Positions 5,387 to 43,091 of a DNA stretch of 64,000 nucleotides are shown here, piece by piece; within the stretch, counting starts at the first letter, position 1, and each line of letters begins with the position of its first letter. The notes beneath the pieces are model-generated. The model saw nothing but the letters and a program-made list of their open reading frames with translations. It was not told where the DNA came from and did not search any database. The position numbers and the translations under genes are program-made. Origin of the DNA: an uncultured Planctomycetales bacterium (GTDB lineage: Bacteria; Omnitrophota; Gorgyraeia; Zapsychrales; Fredricksoniimonadaceae); NCBI GenBank assembly GCA_964572155.1, contig CAZNDZ010000001.1:910290-974289 (forward strand), written 5' to 3'.

Positions 5387-8383
5387 ATGCGTAAATTAGT
5401 TTTTATCATAGTTTTAGCTAGTTTTATTCTAAGCGTCTTTAATATTCCAACACTTAAAGCCAGTGAGATCGTATTACCTTCGCCTGGCACCATGGTTCAT
5501 TTAAGCCCTTCGTTTCAACCCCCAATATTAAAAGGCATTAAAGTTCATCCTGATAACCCATTTAAATTCGAATTTGTGTTGTCGCAGGGCGACAACGCAT
5601 CCGCCGTAGCTGAACACGAAAGTAATTCAGCGAAGGCGGATTTCCTTAAACAAGAATCAACAAAATTAATCAAGTATTTCCTCGCCGCCCTAACCACGCC
5701 CGAAAAAGACATGTGGGTTAATTTAAGCCCCTACGAAAAAGACCGCATTGTGCCCGACGGTTTTGGTCAAACCGAAATGGGACGTGACTTATTAGCCCAA
5801 GATTATATCCTTAAACAAATCACCGCATCCTTAGTTTATCCCGAGGGGGAGATTGGCAAAACATTTTGGAAACGCATTTATGAAGCAACCGCCAATAAGA
5901 ATGTGCCTGTAAACACCTTTAATAAAGTATGGATAGTCCCAGCAAAAGCTGTCGTGTATGAGAACCCAGCATCAGGCACTGCGTATGTGGTTGAATCGTC
6001 ACTTAAAGTGTTAACCGAGCAAGATTACCTTGCTAATACCAAAAATAACAATCAACAAAACAACAATCAAATCGTCCGAGACATCATCATCCCGCAACTC
6101 ACCAAAGAAATCAACGAAGGCAAAAACTTCGCCCAACTCCGACAAGTATACAATTCCTTAATCTTAGCGACGTGGTACAAAAAGAAGATCCGAGACAGCA
6201 TCCTTTCGCAAGTCTACGCAGATAAAAATAAAGTAGCAGGGATCAACATAGACGATCCTTTGGAAAAGCAAAAAATTTATGACCAATATTTACAAGCGTT
6301 CAAGAAGGGGGCGTATAACTTCATCAAAGTAGAGCAAGATCCTTTAACGCAACAGATGATGCCAAGGAAGTATTTTTCGGGTGGGATGCATATGAATATG
6401 GACATGATGTCAACGGTTCATGTAATGCCAAATAGCTTTACCGATTCTAATCAAGCAATGTTGGTACAAGTGAGTATTGCTCCTGAAGGAGCGCGAGTTA
6501 ATGAGGCGATAGATCAACCTAAAGACCCGAAAGTTTTAGCTTTAACAGATTCAATTAATGCATCTATTCATGAAAAAGGTATTTTGGAAATGCAATCAAT
6601 TGATTATGACGATCCTTTATATGTTCAGGTCAGAAATATTATTGCAGTTGCTAACAATCACGAGTTTCATGCTGGAGATGAATACCGTAGCGGGATGGCA
6701 GAAGCGGTTTACAGGGTTGTTCAATATTTAAAATCGAGAAATGATCTTATGAAATTAGACTTTGAGCAGATAGCGAGATTTTTATTGCTAAAAAGGGTGA
6801 TGATTGCAGGAAAATTAGCAGAAAAAGGTAATAGTGATGAAATAGATCTTATTTCAGGTGTAGGAGATAGCGACGGATGGAGGGTTAGATCGCTTGGTAG
6901 GTTTGGATCTCCTCAATCTATTTCTTTTGCTAGTTCCAAGGGGTATCCTGAACTTTATCAAAAGTTAATGCGTAAGAAAAATGAATTTGAATTATCAAAG
7001 AATGGGATATTAACTTATAGAAAAACCTATAGATTTGGAGCGACTAGAACCAAGTATGATCAAATCATTGAAGTTGATAATGATTTTCTGGAATTTAAAA
7101 TTTATCATGCTGATCCAAATTCAGTTCCTTTAATTTTGTTTCATCTGCAAGATCTCTGGACGGAGATATTAAGTAATTCTAATCTAGATAAACGTGATCG
7201 TCTAATAGCTGAAATGGAATGGTGGTTTTATCAGGCTAATCCCTATATCAGGGCTGGGGCAAGCATTGGTAATGCGCTATCTCTTATTGCACAAAGTTTA
7301 ACAGGCAAGATTTTGGATGATCATTTCGAGCACCATGACTGGGACGCTTTATCTAGCACACTCGAGGAATATATCCTTAATCGTTCAAATCAATTTCATC
7401 AATTAAGACAGATACAAGCTGCTTCAAACCCTGCAACTAAAACAGGAAAGACAGCGGACAACGCCCAATTAGCTCAAGACGCTGCCATGCATCATACAGA
7501 GAGTGTTCCTGATTTATCTCAATTTAAAGTAGGAATATCAAATGATCGTATTTCATTATTTAATCAGGGAAAAACTTATGAGTCGCTAAGCAGAGAGGGT
7601 CGAAGTCACATCTTTATATATGGAAATTATGTTATTCGAGTACGGCCTAATACCGAACAAATGTTTCTTAATCTGCAAAGCATCGTAGCCGCATTTAATT
7701 TAGGAAATCAAATTGGCATTCCAATTCCGAGTGTTAGGGCTAGTGGATATATAAATGGAGAAGATGGTAAAGTTTATTCAGCTATCGTTGTTGATCGTAT
7801 AGAGGGTTTTTCTCTTGATAGTAGTTCTATAAAAATGGTAAATCAAGAAGACAGGGTGCGATATACGGAATTATATATTGAATTATTAAGAGCGATGCTT
7901 AAAAATCATGTGGTCCTCGGTGACTGGCAAGCAGCGCAGTTTATGATTGGATATAATGTGAATGACCCTCAAAAAAATATTAAGGCTTGGCTAGTTGATC
8001 CGAAAAGCATGTATGTAGATGAGAATAAACGAAATCGAGCAATAGTGTATTATCAAAATATCTTTTCTCAGGATTTTGTAGAAGTTAATGAATATTTAGA
8101 TTTACGGCTGATTGAAGAATTTTTATTGACGGAAAGTGGAGTACACAGAAGTCGTTTCGAATCTATTCGTGATTCAGCAGCTGCGGCTCGTGGTGGGATT
8201 GATTTTAATGCTGACAAAATAAATTTAGAGACAAATGTCGGTGAGGGGATTAAGTTTCATGTTGATCCTGCCATGTTTAAACAACTTCAAGATGCCCCAG
8301 GATTTACACCGGTTATTATTGACATTCAACCCATGACGGATTTGCCAAAGTTTCTTGGGCTAAAAGTAAGCAACTTGCCTTAA
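5387..8383 (+). CDS. Giant Sec-secreted modular protein, paralog A, with conserved N- and C-terminal modules and unique central cargo; function unknown
   Basis: 998 aa. Sec signal peptide 'MRKLVFIIVLASFILSVFNIPTLKA|SE'. N-terminal ~330 aa and the last ~55 aa are highly similar to ORF 37407..41774 at both protein and nucleotide level. The middle is AT-rich and unrelated. Confidence 0.85.
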   Translation: MRKLVFIIVLASFILSVFNIPTLKASEIVLPSPGTMVHLSPSFQPPILKGIKVHPDNPFKFEFVLSQGDNASAVAEHESNSAKADFLKQESTKLIKYFLAALTTPEKDMWVNLSPYEKDRIVPDGFGQTEMGRDLLAQDYILKQITASLVYPEGEIGKTFWKRIYEATANKNVPVNTFNKVWIVPAKAVVYENPASGTAYVVESSLKVLTEQDYLANTKNNNQQNNNQIVRDIIIPQLTKEINEGKNFAQLRQVYNSLILATWYKKKIRDSILSQVYADKNKVAGINIDDPLEKQKIYDQYLQAFKKGAYNFIKVEQDPLTQQMMPRKYFSGGMHMNMDMMSTVHVMPNSFTDSNQAMLVQVSIAPEGARVNEAIDQPKDPKVLALTDSINASIHEKGILEMQSIDYDDPLYVQVRNIIAVANNHEFHAGDEYRSGMAEAVYRVVQYLKSRNDLMKLDFEQIARFLLLKRVMIAGKLAEKGNSDEIDLISGVGDSDGWRVRSLGRFGSPQSISFASSKGYPELYQKLMRKKNEFELSKNGILTYRKTYRFGATRTKYDQIIEVDNDFLEFKIYHADPNSVPLILFHLQDLWTEILSNSNLDKRDRLIAEMEWWFYQANPYIRAGASIGNALSLIAQSLTGKILDDHFEHHDWDALSSTLEEYILNRSNQFHQLRQIQAASNPATKTGKTADNAQLAQDAAMHHTESVPDLSQFKVGISNDRISLFNQGKTYESLSREGRSHIFIYGNYVIRVRPNTEQMFLNLQSIVAAFNLGNQIGIPIPSVRASGYINGEDGKVYSAIVVDRIEGFSLDSSSIKMVNQEDRVRYTELYIELLRAMLKNHVVLGDWQAAQFMIGYNVNDPQKNIKAWLVDPKSMYVDENKRNRAIVYYQNIFSQDFVEVNEYLDLRLIEEFLLTESGVHRSRFESIRDSAAAARGGIDFNADKINLETNVGEGIKFHVDPAMFKQLQDAPGFTPVIIDIQPMTDLPKFLGLKVSNLP

Positions 8384-8757: not shown

Positions 8758-9438
8758 TTGCTATTTTTATATTTAGATGAGTCTGGGAATTATGTTTTTA
8801 CTAAAAAGGGTTCAGAATATTTAATTTTTACGGCTTTAGCAACAAGTAATCCTTACATGTTGCAATATAGGCTTTGTGAAGTAGAGGAGAAGCTTAGAGA
8901 AAATAGTCTAATGACGGCTGAGTCCCAATACTTTCATGCTACAGAAGACAAACAGGTTGTTCGGGATGAGGTCTTTAAAGTTTTGAAAGAGTGTGATGAT
9001 TTTACAGTGGATAGTATTATTGTTGAGAAATGTAAAACGAATATAGAGTTGAGGGAAGAATCTCAATTATACAGAAAGATTTATCATGTTCTTTTGGAGT
9101 ATGTTTTTAAAAGACATCAAGACGTTGAGAAAATTATAATATTTATTCATGCCGCACCGGTTAATAAGAAAAGACATGCCTTTGAGAAAGGGATTAAAGA
9201 AACCCTAAACGGTATTTTGGATAAAGAGCGACTTGGTGGGAAAATAAAATACCACATTCAGTATCTTCCAACAATTTCTAGCTATGGATTACAGGCTGTT
9301 GATTATTGTTCATGGGCTTTAAAGAAGAAATGGGGAGAATGGGGGGAGAAGATCGACTTACGACCATATGGTTGCATTTCGAATAAGGTAAAGAGTGAGT
9401 TTGAGATATTTAAAATAGGTCAAAAGATATATTATTGA
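8758..9438 (+). CDS. DUF3800-family protein
   Basis: 226 aa, TTG start preceded by SD 'AAGGAAAGG'. N-terminal 'LFLYLDESGNYVF' matches the DUF3800 'IYIDESG' signature and C-terminal 'LQAVDYCSWAL' matches its 'QLADLIAYAI' motif. Strongly AT-rich relative to neighbours. Confidence 0.6.
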   Translation: MLFLYLDESGNYVFTKKGSEYLIFTALATSNPYMLQYRLCEVEEKLRENSLMTAESQYFHATEDKQVVRDEVFKVLKECDDFTVDSIIVEKCKTNIELREESQLYRKIYHVLLEYVFKRHQDVEKIIIFIHAAPVNKKRHAFEKGIKETLNGILDKERLGGKIKYHIQYLPTISSYGLQAVDYCSWALKKKWGEWGEKIDLRPYGCISNKVKSEFEIFKIGQKIYY

Positions 9439-28709: not shown

Positions 28710-32499
<3,790 letters not shown>

Positions 32500-35523: not shown

Positions 35524-36425
35524 GCGCCCCTACAACAGCTCCAATTACAATTAAAGACTTAAGTACAGAAAACCCACGCTGGTGTGCAGGGTGTGGCGAT
35601 TTCGGTATTATCATGGGTTTAAAAAGATTTATTGTTGATCGTCAATTGCAACCTGCAAAGACCATCAATGTTTCAGGGATCGGTTGTTCAGGTCGTGCAC
35701 CAAATTATTTTAATACCTATGGCGTTCACTCTATCCATGGTCGTCCCATCACCGTGGCTTTGGGTATTGCCTTGGCTCGTCCGGATTTGAACTTGTTCGT
35801 TCATGCGGGCGATGGGGATGCGCTTAGTATCGGCGGGAACCATTTAATTCACGGGATCAATAAAAACTTTAATTGCGTGTTTTTGATGTATGACAATGAA
35901 GTTTATGCGTTGACTAAAAATCAAACTTCTCCGACGACACGTAAGGATCATCCAACCAATACACAGCCTCAAGGAAGTTTCTTGAATCCTTTGAACCCTA
36001 TCACCGTGGCTTTAGGTTTGGGGGCTTCGTTTGTGGCTTCAACGGCAGATTGGATCCCAGATCATTTAACCAATACAATGAAAGCCGCATTTGATCATCC
36101 AGGGTTTTCATTTGTACATATTTCTCAACGTTGTCCACACTTTGATCCAAACAATTTTGATCATAAATCATCGTCATGGTTTTCATTTTTGAAGCATCCA
36201 AATGGCATTGATGCAGATCGTCGTTTGGCTGATAAGACAGAAGTGATTGAACATGATCCGTCGGATATGATGGCTGGATTCAAGTATGCCGCTGCTGAAC
36301 GCCGTTACTTTGGTTTGTTCTATCAAAATAAAGATAAACCCCGTTATGATGAAATCTTGCATAACGTTGTTAAAAATGCGCCTAAGAAAGACCGCTCGAA
36401 GATTTTAGATGGCTTTAATATCTGA
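35520..36425 (+). CDS. korB: 2-oxoacid:ferredoxin oxidoreductase beta subunit (TPP-binding)
   Basis: 'WCAGCGDFG', TPP motif 'HAGDGDALSIGGNH'; start overlaps the korA stop (ATGA). Confidence 0.8.
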   Translation: MSAPTTAPITIKDLSTENPRWCAGCGDFGIIMGLKRFIVDRQLQPAKTINVSGIGCSGRAPNYFNTYGVHSIHGRPITVALGIALARPDLNLFVHAGDGDALSIGGNHLIHGINKNFNCVFLMYDNEVYALTKNQTSPTTRKDHPTNTQPQGSFLNPLNPITVALGLGASFVASTADWIPDHLTNTMKAAFDHPGFSFVHISQRCPHFDPNNFDHKSSSWFSFLKHPNGIDADRRLADKTEVIEHDPSDMMAGFKYAAAERRYFGLFYQNKDKPRYDEILHNVVKNAPKKDRSKILDGFNI

Positions 36426-37356
36426 GAAATTAATCATCATTGGTTCAGGACCTGCAGGGCACACGGCCGCGATCTACGCGGCCCGTGCTAATTTAAGCCC
36501 TTTGATGTTCGAAGGCATGTTTGCCGCTGGCGTCGCTGCTGGTGGTCAATTAACAACCACGACAGAAGTTGAAAATTTCCCAGGGTATGAGGCCATTTCT
36601 GGACCTGAGCTCATGGAAAAAATGCGTGCGCAATCATTGCATTGTGGTGCGCGTATTCTAACTGAGACTGTCGACAAAGTTGATTTATCCAAGCGTCCAT
36701 TTATCGTCTTGTCGGGCGCTCAAGAATATAGTGCGCAGGCATTGATCATTGCAACAGGTGCGACCGCCAAGCGCATGAATTTACCTGGGGAAGAACGTTT
36801 ATGGCAAAAGGGCATATCCGCCTGTGCTGTCTGCGACGGGGCTTTACCATTTTTTCGTAATAAAGTTTTAGTTGTCGTCGGTGGTGGGGATAGTGCTGTT
36901 GAAGAAGCCAACTATCTAACGAAGTTTGCTTCCAAAGTCATCATGCTTGTCCGTCGAGATGTCTTGCGTGCATCCAAAGTTATGCAAGAACGCGCGAAGC
37001 ATAATCCAAAAATTGAAATCAAATTTAATACGCATCCCATCGAAGTCTTGGGTGAGAAAATGGTGTCGGGTATTAAAGTTGAAGATACTGTTACCAAACA
37101 ACAATCGGTCATAGATGCCGGTGGTTTATTTTATGCCATTGGTCATGTTCCCAACACCGAATTTTTAGGGGGACAAGTTGCACTTGATGAAACAGGTTAT
37201 ATCAAGGTCCAAGCAGGAACAACCAAAACATCCGTCGAAGGTGTTTTTGCCGCAGGGGATGTTGCTGACAAAGTCTACCGCCAAGCCATCACCTCAGCCG
37301 GCACAGGCTGCATGTCCGCTTTAGACGCCGAACGCTTCCTTTCCGAACACGCTTAG
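36409..37356 (+). CDS. trxB: Thioredoxin-disulfide reductase
   Basis: 'IIIGSGPAGHTAAIYAAR', redox-active 'CAVCDG', second Rossmann 'VVGGGDSAVEEA'. Confidence 0.9.
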   Translation: MALISEKLIIIGSGPAGHTAAIYAARANLSPLMFEGMFAAGVAAGGQLTTTTEVENFPGYEAISGPELMEKMRAQSLHCGARILTETVDKVDLSKRPFIVLSGAQEYSAQALIIATGATAKRMNLPGEERLWQKGISACAVCDGALPFFRNKVLVVVGGGDSAVEEANYLTKFASKVIMLVRRDVLRASKVMQERAKHNPKIEIKFNTHPIEVLGEKMVSGIKVEDTVTKQQSVIDAGGLFYAIGHVPNTEFLGGQVALDETGYIKVQAGTTKTSVEGVFAAGDVADKVYRQAITSAGTGCMSALDAERFLSEHA

Positions 37357-37383
37357 AACATCCATCAAAATTGGCATTTTTAT

Positions 37384-37399
37384 TGTATATATAGTATGC
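37384..37399 (+). promoter_or_regulatory. AT-rich promoter-like element upstream of paralog B sharing TGTATATA/TATAGTATG with the paralog A upstream region
   Basis: 'ttgtatatatagtatgcttaagtaATG' has TATAGT 11 nt before the ATG and no SD. Confidence 0.4.
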
Positions 37400-37406
37400 T
37401 TAAGTA

Positions 37407-40400
37407 ATGCATAAAAGTCTTATCTACATCTTAATCGTCGCATTTGCCTGTGGAACCTTGTGCCCAAATAGGGTTTTGGCCAATGAGCTTGTTTTACCAG
37501 CGCCAGGTACAATGGTTCATTTGAGTCCTTCGGTTGATACGCCCATTTTAAAAGGCATCAAAGTACATCCCGAAAATCCTTTTAAATTCGATTTCGTCTT
37601 GTCGCAAGGTGATGCAACTTCAAACTTAAACGTAACATCAAACAAACTTGTTAAGTATTTTCTAGCCGCATTGACCACCCCAGAAAAAGACATGTGGGTT
37701 AACTTAAGCCCATATGAAAAAGACCGCATTGTCCCTGAGCATTTTGGTACAACAGAAATGGGTCGAGATCTTTTAGCCCAAGATTATTTGCTAAAACAAA
37801 TTACCGCGTCGCTGGTTTATCCTGAAGGGGAAGTGGGGCAAGCCTTCTGGAAAAAAGTCTATGCGTTATCACCGAATAAAAATATCCCTGTAAACACCTT
37901 TAACAAAGTATGGATCGTCCCTAATAAAGCCGTTGTTTATGAAAACGCCAAAGCTGGCAGCGCCTATGTGGTTGAATCATCCTTGAAAGTCATGACTGAG
38001 CAAGATTACCTTGCCGACACAAAAAATAAGAGCACATCAACTAATAATCAAGTTGTGCGCGATATTGTCATCCCACAACTCACCAAAGAAGTCAACGAAG
38101 GCAGCAACTTTGCGCAACTGCGACAAGTATACAATTCCTTAATCTTAGCGACGTGGTACAAGAAAAAGATCAAAGACAGCATCCTGTCACAAGTATACGC
38201 CGATAAAAATAAAGTAGCCGGCGTAAATATCGAAGACCCCCAAGAAAAGCAAAAAATCTATCAGCGTTACCTTGAAGCGTTCAAGAAGGGGGCCTACAAC
38301 TACATCAAAGAAGAGCAAGACCCTGTAACGCATCAAATCATTCCTAAGAAATATTTTTCTGGTGGGATAAGCGCAACAAATTTTAGTAATCAAGCTATGA
38401 CGGTAACAACAGATCCTTCCAATATTCAAAAAGGAATGAATGGTGATAATTTAAAAATTGTATCTGTGTCTATAGACAGGGCGCAAATTGTTCCCATTGT
38501 CCCAATTGCTTCAGTTAATGTTAATGAAGGTGTGACGAATAAATGGCTTGGTAATCATTTGGATCAAATAGATATGTTTCAAGCTTTTGAAATTCTCAAC
38601 GAAGAACATCCTGAATTTAAAAAATTAGAAGAACAAGAAAATAAGATTCTTGTTATCGGGGGAACAGTAGAAGAAGTTAATTTCTTAATTCGGCGATATC
38701 CAAAATCAAGCATTACGGTAGTCAGCTTAAATGAATCTGATTTAAGAGGCTTGCAAGCGTTTGAAAGTAATATGGGAGTAGGAAAAATTAATGGTTTATT
38801 TCTAGGCGATGTCAGAGATTTGACAGCAAGAGAAATTCCTGATGATTCTTTTGATATTGTTTTCTCTCATGGGATAGATTCTTCGACTTTCTTAAGTGAG
38901 GTTGATGCTACGAAAGTATTACAAGGAATAGCATCTCAAGAAATGCGCATGCTTAAAGCGGGTGGCCTTTTATATCATCCTTATATAGGGGATAAAAATG
39001 CTTTAAAGCAATATTATTCGCAACAGTCTGAAGCTGGTTCTCTAAAAGAACTTAAATCAGGTAAAGAGTACCCAGAATTCTTTGTTAAAAGTATGCAGGG
39101 TTCAACTCAATTAAGTAAACAAATATTTGATAGGGCACAAGCATCAAAGAAATTAGTTGTTACAAATCGGGCTAAGGAAATTTTGAGAGAAGTATTTGAT
39201 ATTGGACCGGGTGTTTGGGTGAAAATCCGCGATCTGAGAAAGGGTGAGATTGCTGTTCAGAGAGGTTTATCTGGTTCAGAGCATGAAGGGGATTATATTG
39301 GAGATGGTATTTCTGAAGCATTGAATATATTAAATGGAAAGGTAGATCTCGAAAAACGGTCATACAGTCGAAATGATTTGGATGAATTAACATATGCAGT
39401 AACAAGTCATTATGCTTTACCTTTTGCAATGCGATTTGCTGTTGATGACAAAATTGATCCAGAGATAGGTTTGAGCGAAGAACATATTTATTTGAAAGGT
39501 ATGAATCCTGAAAATTTACTTCAAGTTGCTTTGATTCCTAATCGATCACAGGCTTATTATTGGGCTAGACGGTATCTTAGCTTAATAGAGGATTTAGGTA
39601 TTAAGTTCCGACCTAATAGCAACGGTAAAGTTTTTTCTGATAGCGTTAAAGAGATTATGAAAGAGATAGAGTTCGGAAAGAAGACAGCTTATGGAAGACC
39701 AATAAAAAATTCAGATTATATCAATTCGAAGTTAAGTGCATTATTTGAAAAGTATGAAGCGCCATCCCAGCAGGTTGTTAATTTTATCAGCTCTGGTGCA
39801 ATGATTTCAGAACGTAATATGAACGTGGCGGATAATGCACAAGCATCGTCTGAGGGTAAAATGTTTGGAAGCGTTGAATACCAAGCAATGAAGAATGAAA
39901 AAGATATATCGGTTTCAGTGAAGGACGGTCAACTTATTCTTGAGGGAAAAGAAGGGGTTTATAAAATGCCGTTTTTTGATTCTAAGGATGTTCAAATAGG
40001 AAAACGCATAGGTCAACGAGATGAAAATTCTAATATGGGGTATAGAAAGATCGTTTTCAAAAACAGTGTAGAATTTTTGGGGTATATGCCAGAATTAGGT
40101 AGTTTAACAGCGTTGGAAAGTTTTCTTAAAACACTGAGCATAGTACATACAAACCCTCAGGCTGAGGCTGCATTACCAAGGATTTATGGAGCTTATTATA
40201 ATGATAGAAATGAAATTGAATTAATCGTTGATAAATTTGATTTGCCTCATCCAGACTCTAATTATTTAACAAAAGATGCATCAGTTGAGGTTTTAGATAA
40301 TACATCACAAATACTTTCTGATGGTGTGTTGGCCAGTATTGTATTAAATGGTCTTAATTTAAGCAAAGTGTTCGAAGTTGATTATACGTTTATTGAAGCA

Positions 40401-41774
40401 AATGGACATTTGAGATTTTCATTTCCTGTTAGAACTATCCAATGGATGGAAGAAGTTGGCAGAGGTAAGATTTTTAGAGTCGAGAAGGAGTACCCCTCAC
40501 TAGATTTTGATGCAATCTTGGATGTGCAATATATGATTAAGGAGGGATACCTTCGAGAAGTTATTTCTTATAAAGCCATATTTGCATCGTTTGTAAGAAG
40601 CGCATTTTCTAGATTGATAGCATTTGATCAATCATTACCAAAGATATATTTGATGAGTGGGTATGCTTTGAATGATCTTGTCAGCAATTTGCGTTTTAGA
40701 TTTCTACGGAGAATGATTAACGAATATGGTTTCAAAGCAGTAATCAAAATACAAAACCAACTACATCTCAACGATCCTCGCTTAGAGCGTATTATTTTAG
40801 AAAGAATACACCAACAGTCAAATAATCTTCGTTGGATATTCGAAGTAGAAACAGATCTGGGAGAGTTTATATTTAAGACAGATAGAGATTTGCCATGGGA
40901 CAAAAGAGTAAGATTGGCTTTGAAAATGAAGTTAAAAGATTTTCAATTAAAAACGAATACAGGATTTGATTTTAAAAGTACATATGAAAGTCTATATCAG
41001 GACTTTGTTAAAGAGTCAGGCATTTCAAATCAATCCATGAGCTCTAATCTAAACGGAGCTAAAATATCTAGAAGAGGAATAATTGCTGGTGCGGTTGGTT
41101 TGGGTTTGGCGAGAGTGTTACCTAAGGCTTCTGCGCAACCAGTGAACATTGAGTCAGTGAGAATAATAAACCCTAAAACTTCTTTTGGATATTCTATATT
41201 TGAATGGGATGCGATGAAAGAAGAGGAAAATCTTAGAATAAGTTTGAAAGCTGCAGACGCGCTTGCACAGATATATTTAATGAAAGATCCAAGATCTAAG
41301 TTGTCTGATTTTCTTGAGGTGGCAAAGAATGCTGCATCTGATGAAGATAGAAATACAATGCGATGGGTGTTTCATGTGCTTGATAAACGGGGGGATAGTT
41401 GGACAGATAAAATTAATTGGGATAATAAAGCGGATGTGGATGCGCAGTTTAAGCGAGTCTATGATGACGGGTCTAATGAGCTGAGAAAGTCGGCAAATAT
41501 AGCATTAGGAAAGTATTGGTCGCCGGAATTATTAAAAGCGGTTTTGGCAAAAGATAAGGCTATGAACGTAGATACGAATCAGGATCTTGGTGGTATTGAT
41601 TTTAATGCTGATAAAATGAAGTTAGAGCTTCAGAATTCTGGAGATAGCATTAAGTTTCAGATGGATGCGGCAGAGCTTAAGCAATTGCAGGATGCGTCTG
41701 GGTTTACGCCGGTTATTGTGAATATTCAACCAATGACGGATTTGAAATTGTTTTTGGGTTTGTCTCAAAAATAA
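37407..41774 (+). CDS. Giant Sec-secreted modular protein, paralog B, with conserved N- and C-terminal modules and unique central cargo including a class-I methyltransferase-like segment
   Basis: 1455 aa. Signal peptide 'MHKSLIYILIVAFACGTLCPNRVLA|NE'. The N-terminal ~300 aa after the signal and the C-terminal ~55 aa are highly similar to ORF 5387..8383. The middle is AT-rich and unique. Confidence 0.85.
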   Translation: MHKSLIYILIVAFACGTLCPNRVLANELVLPAPGTMVHLSPSVDTPILKGIKVHPENPFKFDFVLSQGDATSNLNVTSNKLVKYFLAALTTPEKDMWVNLSPYEKDRIVPEHFGTTEMGRDLLAQDYLLKQITASLVYPEGEVGQAFWKKVYALSPNKNIPVNTFNKVWIVPNKAVVYENAKAGSAYVVESSLKVMTEQDYLADTKNKSTSTNNQVVRDIVIPQLTKEVNEGSNFAQLRQVYNSLILATWYKKKIKDSILSQVYADKNKVAGVNIEDPQEKQKIYQRYLEAFKKGAYNYIKEEQDPVTHQIIPKKYFSGGISATNFSNQAMTVTTDPSNIQKGMNGDNLKIVSVSIDRAQIVPIVPIASVNVNEGVTNKWLGNHLDQIDMFQAFEILNEEHPEFKKLEEQENKILVIGGTVEEVNFLIRRYPKSSITVVSLNESDLRGLQAFESNMGVGKINGLFLGDVRDLTAREIPDDSFDIVFSHGIDSSTFLSEVDATKVLQGIASQEMRMLKAGGLLYHPYIGDKNALKQYYSQQSEAGSLKELKSGKEYPEFFVKSMQGSTQLSKQIFDRAQASKKLVVTNRAKEILREVFDIGPGVWVKIRDLRKGEIAVQRGLSGSEHEGDYIGDGISEALNILNGKVDLEKRSYSRNDLDELTYAVTSHYALPFAMRFAVDDKIDPEIGLSEEHIYLKGMNPENLLQVALIPNRSQAYYWARRYLSLIEDLGIKFRPNSNGKVFSDSVKEIMKEIEFGKKTAYGRPIKNSDYINSKLSALFEKYEAPSQQVVNFISSGAMISERNMNVADNAQASSEGKMFGSVEYQAMKNEKDISVSVKDGQLILEGKEGVYKMPFFDSKDVQIGKRIGQRDENSNMGYRKIVFKNSVEFLGYMPELGSLTALESFLKTLSIVHTNPQAEAALPRIYGAYYNDRNEIELIVDKFDLPHPDSNYLTKDASVEVLDNTSQILSDGVLASIVLNGLNLSKVFEVDYTFIEANGHLRFSFPVRTIQWMEEVGRGKIFRVEKEYPSLDFDAILDVQYMIKEGYLREVISYKAIFASFVRSAFSRLIAFDQSLPKIYLMSGYALNDLVSNLRFRFLRRMINEYGFKAVIKIQNQLHLNDPRLERIILERIHQQSNNLRWIFEVETDLGEFIFKTDRDLPWDKRVRLALKMKLKDFQLKTNTGFDFKSTYESLYQDFVKESGISNQSMSSNLNGAKISRRGIIAGAVGLGLARVLPKASAQPVNIESVRIINPKTSFGYSIFEWDAMKEEENLRISLKAADALAQIYLMKDPRSKLSDFLEVAKNAASDEDRNTMRWVFHVLDKRGDSWTDKINWDNKADVDAQFKRVYDDGSNELRKSANIALGKYWSPELLKAVLAKDKAMNVDTNQDLGGIDFNADKMKLELQNSGDSIKFQMDAAELKQLQDASGFTPVIVNIQPMTDLKLFLGLSQK

Positions 41775-41807
41775 TGAAAAATATTATAAGCATGCTAATA
41801 TTGATTT

Positions 41808-42197
41808 ATGAAATCAACTACTAAGACTTGGATAGCTTTAGCAAAGAATGATTTATCCTTAGCTAAAGAGTTGGTTAAGAAGAAGGGGCGGTATCATTAT
41901 TGTGTTCACTTTTGTCATCAATCTTTAGAAAAGATGTTGAAGGCTATTATTAGCGAACGAACAAGATTGTTGCCATTACCGACACATAATTTTAAGACGT
42001 TGTTGGATCAAAGTGGGTTAAAAGATATTCCTGAAGATATTAAGATTTTCTTGTATGGGATGATACCTAATTATATAGGAACAAAATACCCTGAAGATAT
42101 TATGAAGCTTTATAAGAAGTATAATAAAATTTATGCTGATGGGGTTTTAAAGAGAACGGTTGAGGTTGTAAAATGGTTAGAAAAATTAGCGAGATAA
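41808..42197 (+). CDS. HEPN-domain protein (toxin-like component of a HEPN/MNT pair)
   Basis: 'CVHFCHQSLEKMLKAIISERTRLLPLPTHNFKTLL' (R-x6-H) and 'MIPNYIGTKYPED' match the HEPN (PF05168-type) consensus '..AEKALKA....THDL..LL...YYIEARYPD'. Confidence 0.75.
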   Translation: MKSTTKTWIALAKNDLSLAKELVKKKGRYHYCVHFCHQSLEKMLKAIISERTRLLPLPTHNFKTLLDQSGLKDIPEDIKIFLYGMIPNYIGTKYPEDIMKLYKKYNKIYADGVLKRTVEVVKWLEKLAR

Positions 42198-42499
42198 AGA
42201 GAATATTGGCCGAATATAAGGCTGAGTTAAAGACGCATGGCGTGCGCGTTTCTAAGATGTATTTATATGGCTCTTACGCAAATGGGAATCCAAAGTCTTA
42301 TAGTGATATTGATGTGGTGGTAATCTCGTCAGATTTGGCTAAGTATCCTGCATTAAAGCGTCAAGAGGTGTTGTCACAATGGACTATTCCAGTCAATGCG
42401 CCTTTAGAAGTAATTGGGTACACACCAAAAGAATTTAGTTTGGCTAAAGGAACAATTTTTGGCCAAATTCTAAATCAAACTGCAATATCGTTAAATTAA
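42173..42499 (+). CDS. Minimal nucleotidyltransferase (MNT) domain protein (antitoxin-like partner)
   Basis: 'MYLYGSYANGNPKSYSDIDVVVI' is the G-S-x9-D-x-D nucleotidyltransferase motif; overlaps the HEPN gene by 25 nt. Confidence 0.75.
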   Translation: MVRKISEIKRILAEYKAELKTHGVRVSKMYLYGSYANGNPKSYSDIDVVVISSDLAKYPALKRQEVLSQWTIPVNAPLEVIGYTPKEFSLAKGTIFGQILNQTAISLN

Positions 42500-42599
42500 G
42501 AATATTTTCTTCTTTTTGATTTGAATTTGACTCTCCTTCGCGTTAAGATTAAAACATAATTTGTGACCCACACTAACTCGGATTTGAATCCCAAAAGAA

Positions 42600-43091
42600 A
42601 TGTCTTTAAACTTTAGTCAGTACACTTTAGCCAAGTATTTAGATCAACTTTCTACCAAAGAGCCTGTTCCAGGTGGTGGGTCGGCGGCGGGTTTGTCGGC
42701 GGCGTTGGGTGCTTCGTTGTTGTCGATGGTGGCGAATTATTCGATTGGACGTAAGGTGAATACAAAGGCGGTTGAAACGCGCTTGGCAAAATCGTTGAAG
42801 GCCTCCGAAAGTATTCGCAAACGTTTATTGGAATTAACATCGCTAGATTCAGAGGCGTATTTGAGCATTGTCGCGGCACGTAAGGCGGATGCGGCAACGC
42901 AAAAGAAGGCTAGCCGTAACGCAGCGGCGGTTGGCAAAGAAATTTGTAAGTTGTGTTATAAGGCAATGGAATTGACACCTTTCTTAGTTGAAAAAGGAAA
43001 TCCATATTTAATTAGCGACGTGGAAGTGGCGGTTGAATTATTACAAGCGGGGTACATCGGTTCAATGGTTATGGTGAAGGTCAATCAATGA
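42600..43091 (+). CDS. Formiminotransferase-cyclodeaminase C-domain / methenyl-THF cyclohydrolase (FchA-like) protein
   Basis: 'PVPGGGSAAGLSAALGASLLSMV' and 'ISDVEVAVELLQAGYIGSMVMVKVN' match the FTCD_C/FchA family. Confidence 0.75.
   Translation: MSLNFSQYTLAKYLDQLSTKEPVPGGGSAAGLSAALGASLLSMVANYSIGRKVNTKAVETRLAKSLKASESIRKRLLELTSLDSEAYLSIVAARKADAATQKKASRNAAAVGKEICKLCYKAMELTPFLVEKGNPYLISDVEVAVELLQAGYIGSMVMVKVNQ

Follow-up and report, generated by a model that had tools for sequence, protein, structure and literature searches.

Gene B of an uncultured Omnitrophota bacterium, a probable exported effector polyprotein of a large modular family, and the variable chromosomal junction that carries it

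Introduction

The nearest functional analogues of the protein described here appear to be the MARTX toxins, the polymorphic toxins, the cargo proteins of the type IX secretion system (T9SS), and the Crinklers of oomycetes. The MARTX toxins of Vibrio and its relatives are longer than 3500 amino acids (aa), leave the cell by type I secretion without a Sec signal, and contain glycine-rich repeat arms and an internal cysteine protease that cuts after Leu. Among the polymorphic toxins, the AT-rich tip of Rhs proteins as compared with their core is a classic feature. In T9SS cargo proteins, the C-terminal domain is an outer-membrane secretion signal, which is cleaved off (PMC11285876). Here, we analyzed gene B, located in a 64,000-nucleotide stretch of DNA (referred to as the window) from an uncultured bacterium of the Omnitrophota lineage (assembly GCA_964572155.1, contig CAZNDZ010000001.1, positions 910,290 to 974,289 of the forward strand). 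On the basis of its sequence and genomic context, B belongs to a modular Omnitrophota family, and the whole gene is a lineage-specific insertion; we think it fairly probable that it encodes an exported and processed effector polyprotein.

Results and Discussion

Architecture of Protein B and Its Family

Gene B is an intact open reading frame (ORF) of the forward strand (37407..41774), which codes for a protein of 1455 aa. The window contains a second gene of this kind, paralog A (5387..8383, forward strand, 998 aa), with the same constant modules and different cargo. A tblastn comparison of the B protein with the 64-kb window retrieved B and A alone. Residues 1-321 of B were 72% identical to A and residues 1395-1452 were 71% identical, with no match between these two regions, where B has 1069 aa of cargo and A has 601 aa. 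The original prediction, which had been made from the sequence of the window, had described both genes as common N- and C-modules around unique cargo and had placed the end of the N-module at KKYFSGG. Both claims held, and KKYFSGG was located at aa 314-320 of B. The N-modules of B and A (37407-38381 and 5387-6388) share 74% nucleotide identity, and their longest identical run is 41 nt. The constant parts of B are the following:

37407..37481, forward strand: predicted Sec signal peptide, aa 1-25, with cleavage between VLA and NE, assigned by inspection alone
37482..38372, forward strand: constant N-module, aa ~26-322, ending in KKYFSGG, with C3-rich codon usage (C3, C at the third codon position)
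41589..41771, forward strand: constant C-module, aa 1395-1455, GGIDFN...GFTPVIVNIQPMTDLKLFLGL, 71% identical to that of A

The N-terminus of B consists of MHKS, LIYILIVAFACGTL, and CPNRVLA followed by NE, and it resembles a cleavable Sec signal. An n-region, an h-region, and an AxA site were also recognized, again by inspection, in every paralog examined.

A homologue search with B gave at least 4535 proteins at E ≤ 1e-3 (8000 candidates scored). Among the matches listed, all those with a name belong to Candidatus Omnitrophica. The 119 homologues besides B in this set are 800-2500 aa long and cover 20-36% of B, which corresponds to the N-module alone, at 55-73% identity. The C-module of ~60 aa is located at the C-terminus of nearly all of these members, with the consensus GGIDL-x-NLQ-x-N-G-x-IKFH-x-DPAML-x-QLQNAPGF-x-PVIINIQP-x-DL-x-FLGL. 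In a 36-sequence alignment (A1), the N-module has 92 invariant columns, and divergent versions of both constant modules are present in P0121, P0122, P0124, and P0128. The features of the family found in B are an N-module ending in [KR][YF]F[SA]GG after a signal peptide, a terminal GGID[LF]...PVIxNIxP...FLG, and the delimiters described below. The genome has at least six family paralogs on record (B, A, P0010, P0032, P0043, and P0075), all entered with a longest contig of 1,344,502 bp and apparently located on one shared contig.

The N- and C-modules had no match in Pfam-A (2025), NCBIfam (2026), or PDB sequences. Profile searches of PDB sequences with the N-module alignment, the C-module, and cargo module 2 of B gave nothing relevant, and the A1 matches fell in junk cargo columns. 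Full-length B gave zero Pfam or NCBIfam matches at E ≤ 0.1, PADLOC has no model for B or A, and exact-peptide seeds did not find the family in viral contigs. The constant modules and the D-x-A-M motif were not found described in the Omnitrophota literature examined, including a 2026 complete-genome preprint, Seymour et al. 2023, the lipocone paper, and papers mentioning Omnitrophica fusions, which is no proof of novelty. B, which is specific to its lineage, belongs to a very large family, restricted to Omnitrophota and without a Pfam-A or NCBIfam model. Its members consist of a Sec-type signal peptide, an N-module of ~300 aa with YFSGG at its end, cargo modules in a variable series, and a C-module of ~60 aa.

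Two further observations concern the constant modules. Locus L008 contains, at 922-1392, an intact ORF of 156 aa, which joins a signal peptide plus ~50 aa from the start of an N-module to the last ~45 aa of a C-module. The join passes through VIPALPAGRQGNAGIH...DPRFRGDDSG, and the ORF resembles what a deletion of the cargo would leave of a family member. In addition, several family proteins (among them P0012, P0069, P0102, and P0133) and L008 at ~1110-1230 repeatedly contain peptides such as VIPAKAGIQ and (D)SRFRGND within the variable loops of their N- and C-modules. These may represent the two reading directions of an in-frame short palindromic DNA repeat.

Delimiter Motif and Internal Tat-like Signals

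The cargo of the family is divided by a short peptide motif, D-x-A-M/Q, which we call the delimiter. In 124 thousand residues of cargo from 119 members, D-x-A-M was observed 294 times as compared with 14 expected (21-fold, z ~75), and it is the most enriched gapped tetrapeptide in the family cargo. N-x-A-M and D-x-A-Q are likewise enriched and are rarer than D-x-A-M. The motif also has preferred positions. Within 40 aa after YFSGG it was found in 85 of 120 members, ~8 residues on (111 with a relaxed pattern), and within 40 aa before GGID in 74 of 120, ~6 residues ahead (96 with the relaxed pattern), while the chance of a delimiter per 40-aa window is 1.1%. In the rest of the window proteome, D-x-A-M was not enriched (3 observed vs 2.1 expected), and the motif was absent from non-family proteins that have homologues of B modules. 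In B, the delimiters split the cargo into four modules:

38388..38399, forward strand: NQAM, aa 328-331, at the family position (YFSGG, ~8 aa, DxAM)
38475..38486, forward strand: DRAQ, aa 357-360
39129..39140, forward strand: DRAQ, aa 575-578, in the first copy of a 17-nt direct repeat (family D5)
39831..39842, forward strand: DNAQ, aa 809-812, in the second copy of the 17-nt direct repeat
41028..41039, forward strand: NQSM, aa 1208-1211
41553..41564, forward strand: DKAM, aa 1383-1386, at the family position just 5' of the C-module

The delimiters of A include NQAM at aa 355 and DAAM at aa 698. The domain blocks that HMMER found in B begin 4-5 residues past delimiters. Cargo blocks shared with at least one other member are present in 61 of 120 members, as expected from the recombinational modularity that the original prediction had proposed, and 27% of the ends of such common blocks lie within 10 aa of a delimiter, as compared with 9% for random placement. 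The codons at the delimiters vary and the flanking nucleotides are unconserved; therefore, the delimiter is a peptide-level signal.

It was also observed that the C-module consensus itself holds DPAM. The 17-nt direct repeat around module 2 consists of GATAGGGCACAAGCATC at 39129-39145 and GATAATGCACAAGCATC at 39831-39847, which are identical at 15 of 17 positions and encode DRAQAS and DNAQAS, respectively. It may represent microhomology for cassette exchange, or the same peptide written in the same preferred codons.

Several cargo modules open with a segment that resembles a twin-arginine translocation (Tat) signal. In B, whose fourth module opens in this way, the sequence reads NQS-M-SSNLNGAKISRRGIIAGAVGLGLARVLPKASA-Q, and the Tat-like signal was assigned as follows:

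41037..41135, forward strand: Tat-like signal of module 4, aa 1211-1243, starting at the Met of NQSM, MSSNLNGAKISRRGIIAGAVGLGLARVLPKASA

Of nine strict Tat-like segments in the cargos, seven are located within 30 aa after a delimiter. Internal Tat-like signals are also present in P0075, P0059, P0078, P0095, P0103, and P0029. As these signals directly follow the motif, the residue after D-x-A behaves like the N-terminus of a protein.

The delimiter Mets could be internal translation starts, so that the genes would be in-frame fused cistrons that also yield separate proteins, which would account for the Tat-like signals right after the Met. It would suit this explanation that Met begins the modules at ~80% of delimiters and that the Tat-like signals lie within a few to ~10 residues of it. 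However, the remaining ~20% of delimiters have Gln (CAA/CAG) at this position, conserved nucleotides, Shine-Dalgarno-like or otherwise, are lacking upstream of the ATG, and different codons are used for D and A. Moreover, the conserved residues are the upstream D and A, which a start codon does not need. We regard internal starts as very improbable. The sites between D-x-A and M/Q could be cut by a dedicated protease; S41/Ctp proteases, which cleave the photosystem II D1 precursor at D-x-A|A, are a lead in this respect. A host-dependent Omnitrophota cell would then deliver a secreted polyprotein to a partner or prey cell, where it would be cut into effectors with native-like N-termini, and the modules with Tat-like signals would be re-exported to the periplasm of the recipient by its own Tat system. 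We put this detailed scheme forward tentatively, as possible but doubtful.

Cargo Modules of B

The four modules of the B cargo are the following:

38487..39128, forward strand: cargo module 1, aa 361-574, divergent class I SAM-methyltransferase-like
39141..39830, forward strand: cargo module 2, aa 579-808, a compact alpha/beta domain without a name that weakly matches the ADP-ribosyltransferase (ART)-like fold
39843..41027, forward strand: cargo module 3, aa 813-1207 (395 aa), orphan
41136..41552, forward strand: remainder of cargo module 4, to aa 1382, orphan

A word-indexed search of 5.8 billion proteins with the B cargo retrieved only B itself. When 1.84 billion cluster representatives were scanned exhaustively with HMMER, 56 matches were obtained, which fall into two well-separated blocks at B aa 364-579 and 583-788. 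The homologues are remote (≤45% identity) and clear for two of the four modules. The modules 1 and 2 of B have counterparts in the family members P0121, P0122, and P0125.

Module 1 gave Methyltransf_11/25/31 matches below cutoff (15 bits, E 0.035-0.05). Weak methyltransferase matches were also obtained for its homologues P0125, P0134, P0151, and P0160, and P0125 just reaches the Methyltransf_11 cutoff. The motifs visible in this module are VIGGT...SLNESD...GDVRD...DIVFS. Most of its homologues that could be classified are other family members.

Module 2 was modelled with a predicted local distance difference test (pLDDT) score of 86 and disordered ends. Its homologues are the family members P0121 and P0122 (the latter a minimal member made up of signal peptide, N-module, module 2, and C-module), stand-alone proteins of 230-300 aa, and the extreme C-termini of proteins of 650-4850 aa, one of which has a near-threshold PAAR motif. 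The invariant residues are G, P, W, R (QRG), G, E, G, Y, W, G, and F. An RSxS-like segment follows the invariant Glu, and the canonical ART order (R-S-E or H-Y-E) is not evident. Foldseek gave nothing significant for module 2 against the PDB, and a third word-indexed search with the module 2 profile gave only two proteins, both already found. The ART-like fold is taken here as a lead and not as a result.

In the case of module 3, two weak HMMER matches were obtained (P0167 and P0172, E 2e-4 to 5e-4) at aa 868-1026. Module 4 gave one (P0171, E 5e-4) at aa 1260-1386.

The cargo of A (6389-8191) has a Pfam match to AvrB_AvrC, a type III effector family, at A aa 572-626. The match is just above the cutoff of 23.2 bits, with 25.2 bits for the A cargo alone and 23.8 for full-length A. 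The A module at aa 724-927 is ~30% identical to two tandem modules of P0002 (locus L001).

Among the matches listed, the Pfam domains in the cargo of the family include methyltransferases, GNAT, receiver domains, HTH, HEAT, kinases, PP2C, and GGDEF, and further HAD, PLD, PRTase, PGK, helicases, and M48/M23 peptidases. Most of these are ordinary enzymes and signalling domains, and the family could thus serve to export and display the cell's own enzymes. It would then form a periplasmic or surface scaffold with the N- and C-modules as anchors and D-x-A-M as an uncleaved linker or docking motif. Two other points agree with such a role: no immunity gene was identified, and the long proteins of Omnitrophota are reported to be multi-enzyme architectures that contain methyltransferase, HATPase, GNAT, and HAD domains and are for the most part associated with the membrane or surface (bioRxiv 10.64898/2026.06.07.730766). 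However, many of the cargo domains need cytoplasmic cofactors (SAM, ATP, NAD, PRPP), which are unavailable outside the cell. The effector or toxin flavour of the ART-like module 2, of its PAAR-linked homologue, and of the AvrB-like segment in A does not suit it either, and conflict genes typically show the extreme presence/absence turnover and the orphan cargo seen here. Display of the cell's own enzymes is therefore, in our opinion, unlikely.

The Locus and Its Counterparts in Related Genomes

Gene B lies between two blocks of conserved housekeeping genes, with a promoter-like site just upstream:

36409..37356, forward strand: thioredoxin-reductase-like (TrxR-like) gene, left flank, the last gene of a conserved rSAM-OFOR-TrxR block
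37371..37400, forward strand: promoter-like site TTGGCA-18-TATGCT just 5' of B, a consensus match at 9 of 12 positions
42600..43091, forward strand: FTCD_C gene, right flank, the first gene of an FTCD_C-FolD-NADH oxidase-PolA-GlgA block

The count of promoter-like sites in the B region is not above that in shuffled sequences. The FTCD_C and TrxR-like genes were used as anchors of synteny, and ~35 syntenic Omnitrophota loci were obtained, in which the conserved order is rSAM-OFORa-OFORb-TrxR and then FTCD_C-FolD-NADH oxidase-PolA-GlgA. TrxR and FTCD_C are directly adjacent in 11 loci, including L004, and a pirin gene is present at the junction in ~20. Family members were found there in L003, L042, and L035, whose TrxR proteins are each ~78-79% identical to that of the window. 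These members are not orthologous to B or to each other: the identity of the N-modules is 45-55%, and no cargo is shared. The closest relative is L004, with 83% identity for TrxR and 93% for OFORb. The best match of FTCD_C is 73% identical (L010), as compared with 71% in L004.

The original prediction had regarded the N- and C-modules as a scaffold that is fixed at this locus. This claim was not borne out, since the modules are missing there in most of the syntenic loci. Because the flanking genes are adjacent, separated by pirin, or separated by a non-orthologous member in the relatives, the insertion comprises the whole of B together with a HEPN/MNT gene pair that follows it. The site has been entered repeatedly by family members. 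Flanking direct or inverted repeats were not found around the B insertion, and Pfam scans of the window genes gave zero matches to integrases, transposases, or insertion sequence (IS) elements.

The junction (37357-42599 of the window; L002-L011 and L023-L050) was seen to be a recurrent variable spot. In L006 and L010, family members were observed at further junctions of this block, in the former at the boundary of rSAM and OFORa and in the latter 5' of rSAM. A conserved intergenic element, TCCTTTCCGTTAATATAAAT, precedes FTCD_C in L002, L003, L005, L007, and L008, and its counterpart at ~42530-42570 of the window is CTCCTTCGCGTTAAGATTAAA. It is probably the promoter or leader of FTCD_C, and in the window this promoter-like element is kept 3' of the MNT gene.

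Composition and Codon Usage

The base composition of B changes along the gene. The background was calculated from 200-codon windows of 34 other window genes (GC3, GC content at the third codon position):

B N-module: GC 0.411, GC3 0.431, C3 0.27
B cargo: GC 0.353, GC3 0.263, C3 0.08
B C-module: GC 0.383, GC3 0.393, C3 0.016
Background, other genes: GC3 0.407 ± 0.040, C3 0.196 ± 0.036

The profile is thus not uniform along the ORF, in agreement with the original prediction, and the break that had been placed at the end of the N-module was recovered. The maximum-likelihood change point is located after codon 311 of B (nt 38339; likelihood ratio 81) and after codon 313 of A, in both cases no more than ~10 codons from where the shared N-module ends. 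The cargo windows of B have GC3 z-values of -2.3 to -5.0 relative to the background. GC at codon positions 1 and 2 stays at ~0.40 throughout B, which indicates that the shift is purely synonymous, and it consists almost wholly of third-position C. A stop-free run of 1069 codons at the composition of the cargo has a probability of ~1e-40; therefore, the B cargo is coding.

The N-module is not host-like, as had been supposed. In the central N-modules of B and A, C3 is 0.30-0.32 as compared with a background maximum of 0.27, and the middle of the B N-module has the highest C3 of all 200-codon windows of the 64 kb. The distance of codon usage from the background is 0.135 for the B N-module, 0.147 for the B cargo, and 0.089 ± 0.018 for other genes, so that the two parts of B deviate by similar amounts in opposite directions. 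The C3 step from N-module to cargo was also observed in A (0.27 to 0.09) and outside this genome in further family members (L001, 0.26 to 0.09; L003, 0.19 to 0.09; L042, 0.27 to 0.09), and it is less marked in the GC-richer L006 and L052. It is therefore a standing trait of the family and not a recent event specific to B. The C3-poor composition of the B cargo is shared by the A cargo and by the HEPN, MNT, and DUF3800 genes near B and A (C3 0.04-0.09; HEPN 0.04). It is the signature of the variable, accessory gene pool of the family, and it is no indication of any particular recent foreign donor.

These data bear on the origin of the cargo. It had been proposed that 38400..42500 is foreign DNA; in full, the N- and C-modules would be a resident, fixed scaffold, and only ~38400..42500 would have come recently from an AT-rich donor. 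The AT-rich character of this segment was confirmed. The sharp C3/GC3 change point at codon 311 would agree with such an origin, as would the low C3 of the cargo, the C-module, and the HEPN/MNT pair (all 0.02-0.09), the lack of a close homologue of the cargo, and the N-module of P0002, which is 73-78% identical to that of B with wholly different cargo. No orthologue with the same cargo was found in syntenic relatives or among 5.8 billion proteins, as the original prediction had anticipated. On the other hand, a recent acquisition of the cargo alone was not supported. Related genomes lack the N- and C-modules at the site, which makes the whole gene the indel, and the supposed foreign block includes a conserved C-module. 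The same step occurs in A and in the members of other genomes, and the N-module is itself an outlier in codon usage. Neither the 5.8 billion proteins nor the 1.84 billion cluster representatives contained a donor, and the repeats, integrases, and IS elements mentioned above were not found. We consider a recent foreign cargo in a resident scaffold quite unlikely. A block of AT-rich sequence in a gene is not necessarily a recent foreign insertion, and in the present case the true indel is the whole gene.

The step could also have arisen with no transfer at all, from evolutionary regimes that differ between the parts of a single gene. Strong purifying or codon selection, or GC-biased gene conversion among paralogs, would act on the constant modules, and the cargo would evolve fast in place under AT-biased mutation and become orphan in this way. 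A family-wide step that scales with genome GC, the unchanged GC at codon positions 1 and 2, the orphan modules 3 and 4, and the C3 of the N-module above background are all consistent with this explanation. It is at odds with the N-modules of A and B, whose 74% nucleotide identity and longest identical run of 41 nt exclude recent conversion, and with the mobility of the modules, which is evident from the blocks common to 61 of 120 members and from the counterparts shared by A with P0002 and by B modules 1 and 2 with P0121, P0122, and P0125. A difference of 17-20 points of GC3 within one transcript is also large for selection alone. An origin without transfer thus seems unlikely to us.

Neighbouring Genes

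The HEPN/MNT pair that follows B had been noticed in the original prediction, and both domains and their motifs were verified:

41808..42197, forward strand: HEPN-domain protein, 129 aa, Pfam HEPN 1e-13, with RLLPLPTH (Rx6H)
42173..42499, forward strand: minimal nucleotidyltransferase (MNT), 108 aa, NTP_transf_2 2e-9, with GSx10DxD, PADLOC PDC-S09

The two genes overlap by 25 nt. The pair thus has the features of HEPN-MNT toxin-antitoxin (TA) systems, namely Rx4-6H, GSx9-13DxD (GSYANGNPKSYSDID), and overlapping genes, and the NCBIfam MntA score of the MNT gene is 26.8, below the cutoff of 60. No link of the pair to B beyond adjacency was found, and other family members are without such a pair. 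It is a self-contained TA module.

Gene A is followed by an AT-rich DUF3800 gene at 8758-9438 (Pfam 1.7e-10, PADLOC DUF3800_VII, GC 0.335, C3 0.075). With DUF3800 after A and HEPN/MNT after B, both family members of the window adjoin accessory genes of the defence or TA type. The only large minus-strand gene in the region, at 30673-32499, codes for 608 aa. Neither Pfam nor PADLOC gave a match for it, yet its conservation in L004 and L006 is 71-81%. The remaining window is ordinary chromosome, with AddAB-like nuclease, IleRS, Lgt/LspA, MreBC, UvrB, ThiC, OFOR, FolD, PolA, and GlgA.

Proposed Function

In the polyprotein reading that we favour, the protein would be exported by Sec, and the constant modules would serve export, targeting, or anchoring. 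The cargo modules would be effectors or toxins aimed at a host or competitor, and they would be freed by proteolysis between D-x-A and M/Q. Diversity would arise when recombination in or close to the delimiters and the constant modules exchanges one module for another. The location of module 2 homologues at the C-termini of large proteins, one of them with PAAR, and the AvrB_AvrC match in A suggest an effector flavour.

Several points weigh against this reading, in which export past the signal peptide, cleavage at D-x-A-M, and delivery into another cell are inferred from the sequence. Many cargos of the family are housekeeping-type enzymes (kinases, HAD, PRTase, GNAT, receiver domains) and not classical toxins, and an immunity-like gene for B was not identified, its 3' neighbours being the HEPN/MNT pair. 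The ends of homology blocks are enriched only ~3-fold at delimiters. The AlphaFold2 model of the N-module, calculated from 36 sequences, had a pLDDT of 51 and was unusable because the alignment is too uniform (62-73% identity). The comparison of loci extends to a nearest relative with 83% TrxR identity and is therefore one above the strain level. It was also noted that internal Tat-like signals make no obvious sense in a protein exported by Sec.

Omnitrophota are widespread, mostly uncultured nanobacteria that are thought to live off other cells, and an exported family of thousands of proteins would be a strong candidate for their partner-interaction toolkit, as its proteins combine common ends and a common delimiter with an almost unlimited range of enzymatic modules. 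If true, the more detailed scheme of a dedicated protease and re-export by the recipient's Tat system would describe a new phylum-wide system of effector delivery and diversification, based on two uncharacterized constant domains. In addition, the family provides a ready-made collection of domain boundaries, since the delimiters mark the limits of modules, including orphans such as modules 3 and 4 of B.

Comparison with Known Systems

The likeness of B to MARTX toxins consists of constant N- and C-terminal regions around a variable, recombining effector array and of short release sites between the domains, where release of the B modules would be by the proposed proteolysis; this is a resemblance of layout. 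In contrast to MARTX toxins, B and A have no repeats or cysteine protease domain (Peptidase_C80) in Pfam, and they combine small, unrelated constant modules with a Sec-type signal and D-x-A-M/Q.

The polymorphic toxins (Rhs, CdiA, PAAR/LXG; PMC4436062) resemble B in a conserved N-terminal part that is joined at a short motif to hypervariable domains and in accessory loci with presence/absence variation. As in the case of the Rhs tip and core, the variable part of B is AT-rich relative to the conserved part, and large proteins, one of them with a PAAR motif close to threshold, have homologues of module 2 at their C-termini. However, the variable part of B is internal, and the extreme C-terminus is occupied by a conserved C-module instead of a toxin domain. 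Members of the family have several cargo modules per protein, many of which are ordinary enzymes. No trafficking or secretion domain (PAAR, LXG, Rhs, TPS, etc.) was found in B by Pfam/NCBIfam matching at E ≤ 0.1.

No T9SS is known from Omnitrophota. The T9SS cargo proteins of Bacteroidota (PMC11285876) are similar to B in having a Sec signal, arbitrary domains, and a short conserved C-terminal domain common to hundreds of proteins. Their C-terminal domain, however, is an Ig-like beta-sandwich of 70-100 aa with its own Pfam/TIGRFAM models, none of which matches the C-module of B, and they have neither a common N-module nor D-x-A-M delimiters. The Crinkler (CRN) effectors of oomycetes (PMC5289972) likewise have a signal peptide and a conserved N-module that ends at a short motif, which is the point of recombination with highly diverse effector domains at the C-terminus, and they form large lineage-specific families. 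Unlike B, CRNs are eukaryotic, lack a conserved C-module, usually contain a single effector region, and are unrelated in sequence.

The gene pair after B resembles HEPN-MNT (type VII) TA systems in its Rx4-6H HEPN, its GSx10DxD MNT, and its operon-like overlap. It differs from them in that the HEPN gene comes first and the MntA score is below cutoff. As for B, it lacks those defining features of each analogue that could be tested and is therefore assigned to the general theme of polymorphic, modular effectors as a member of none of these systems.

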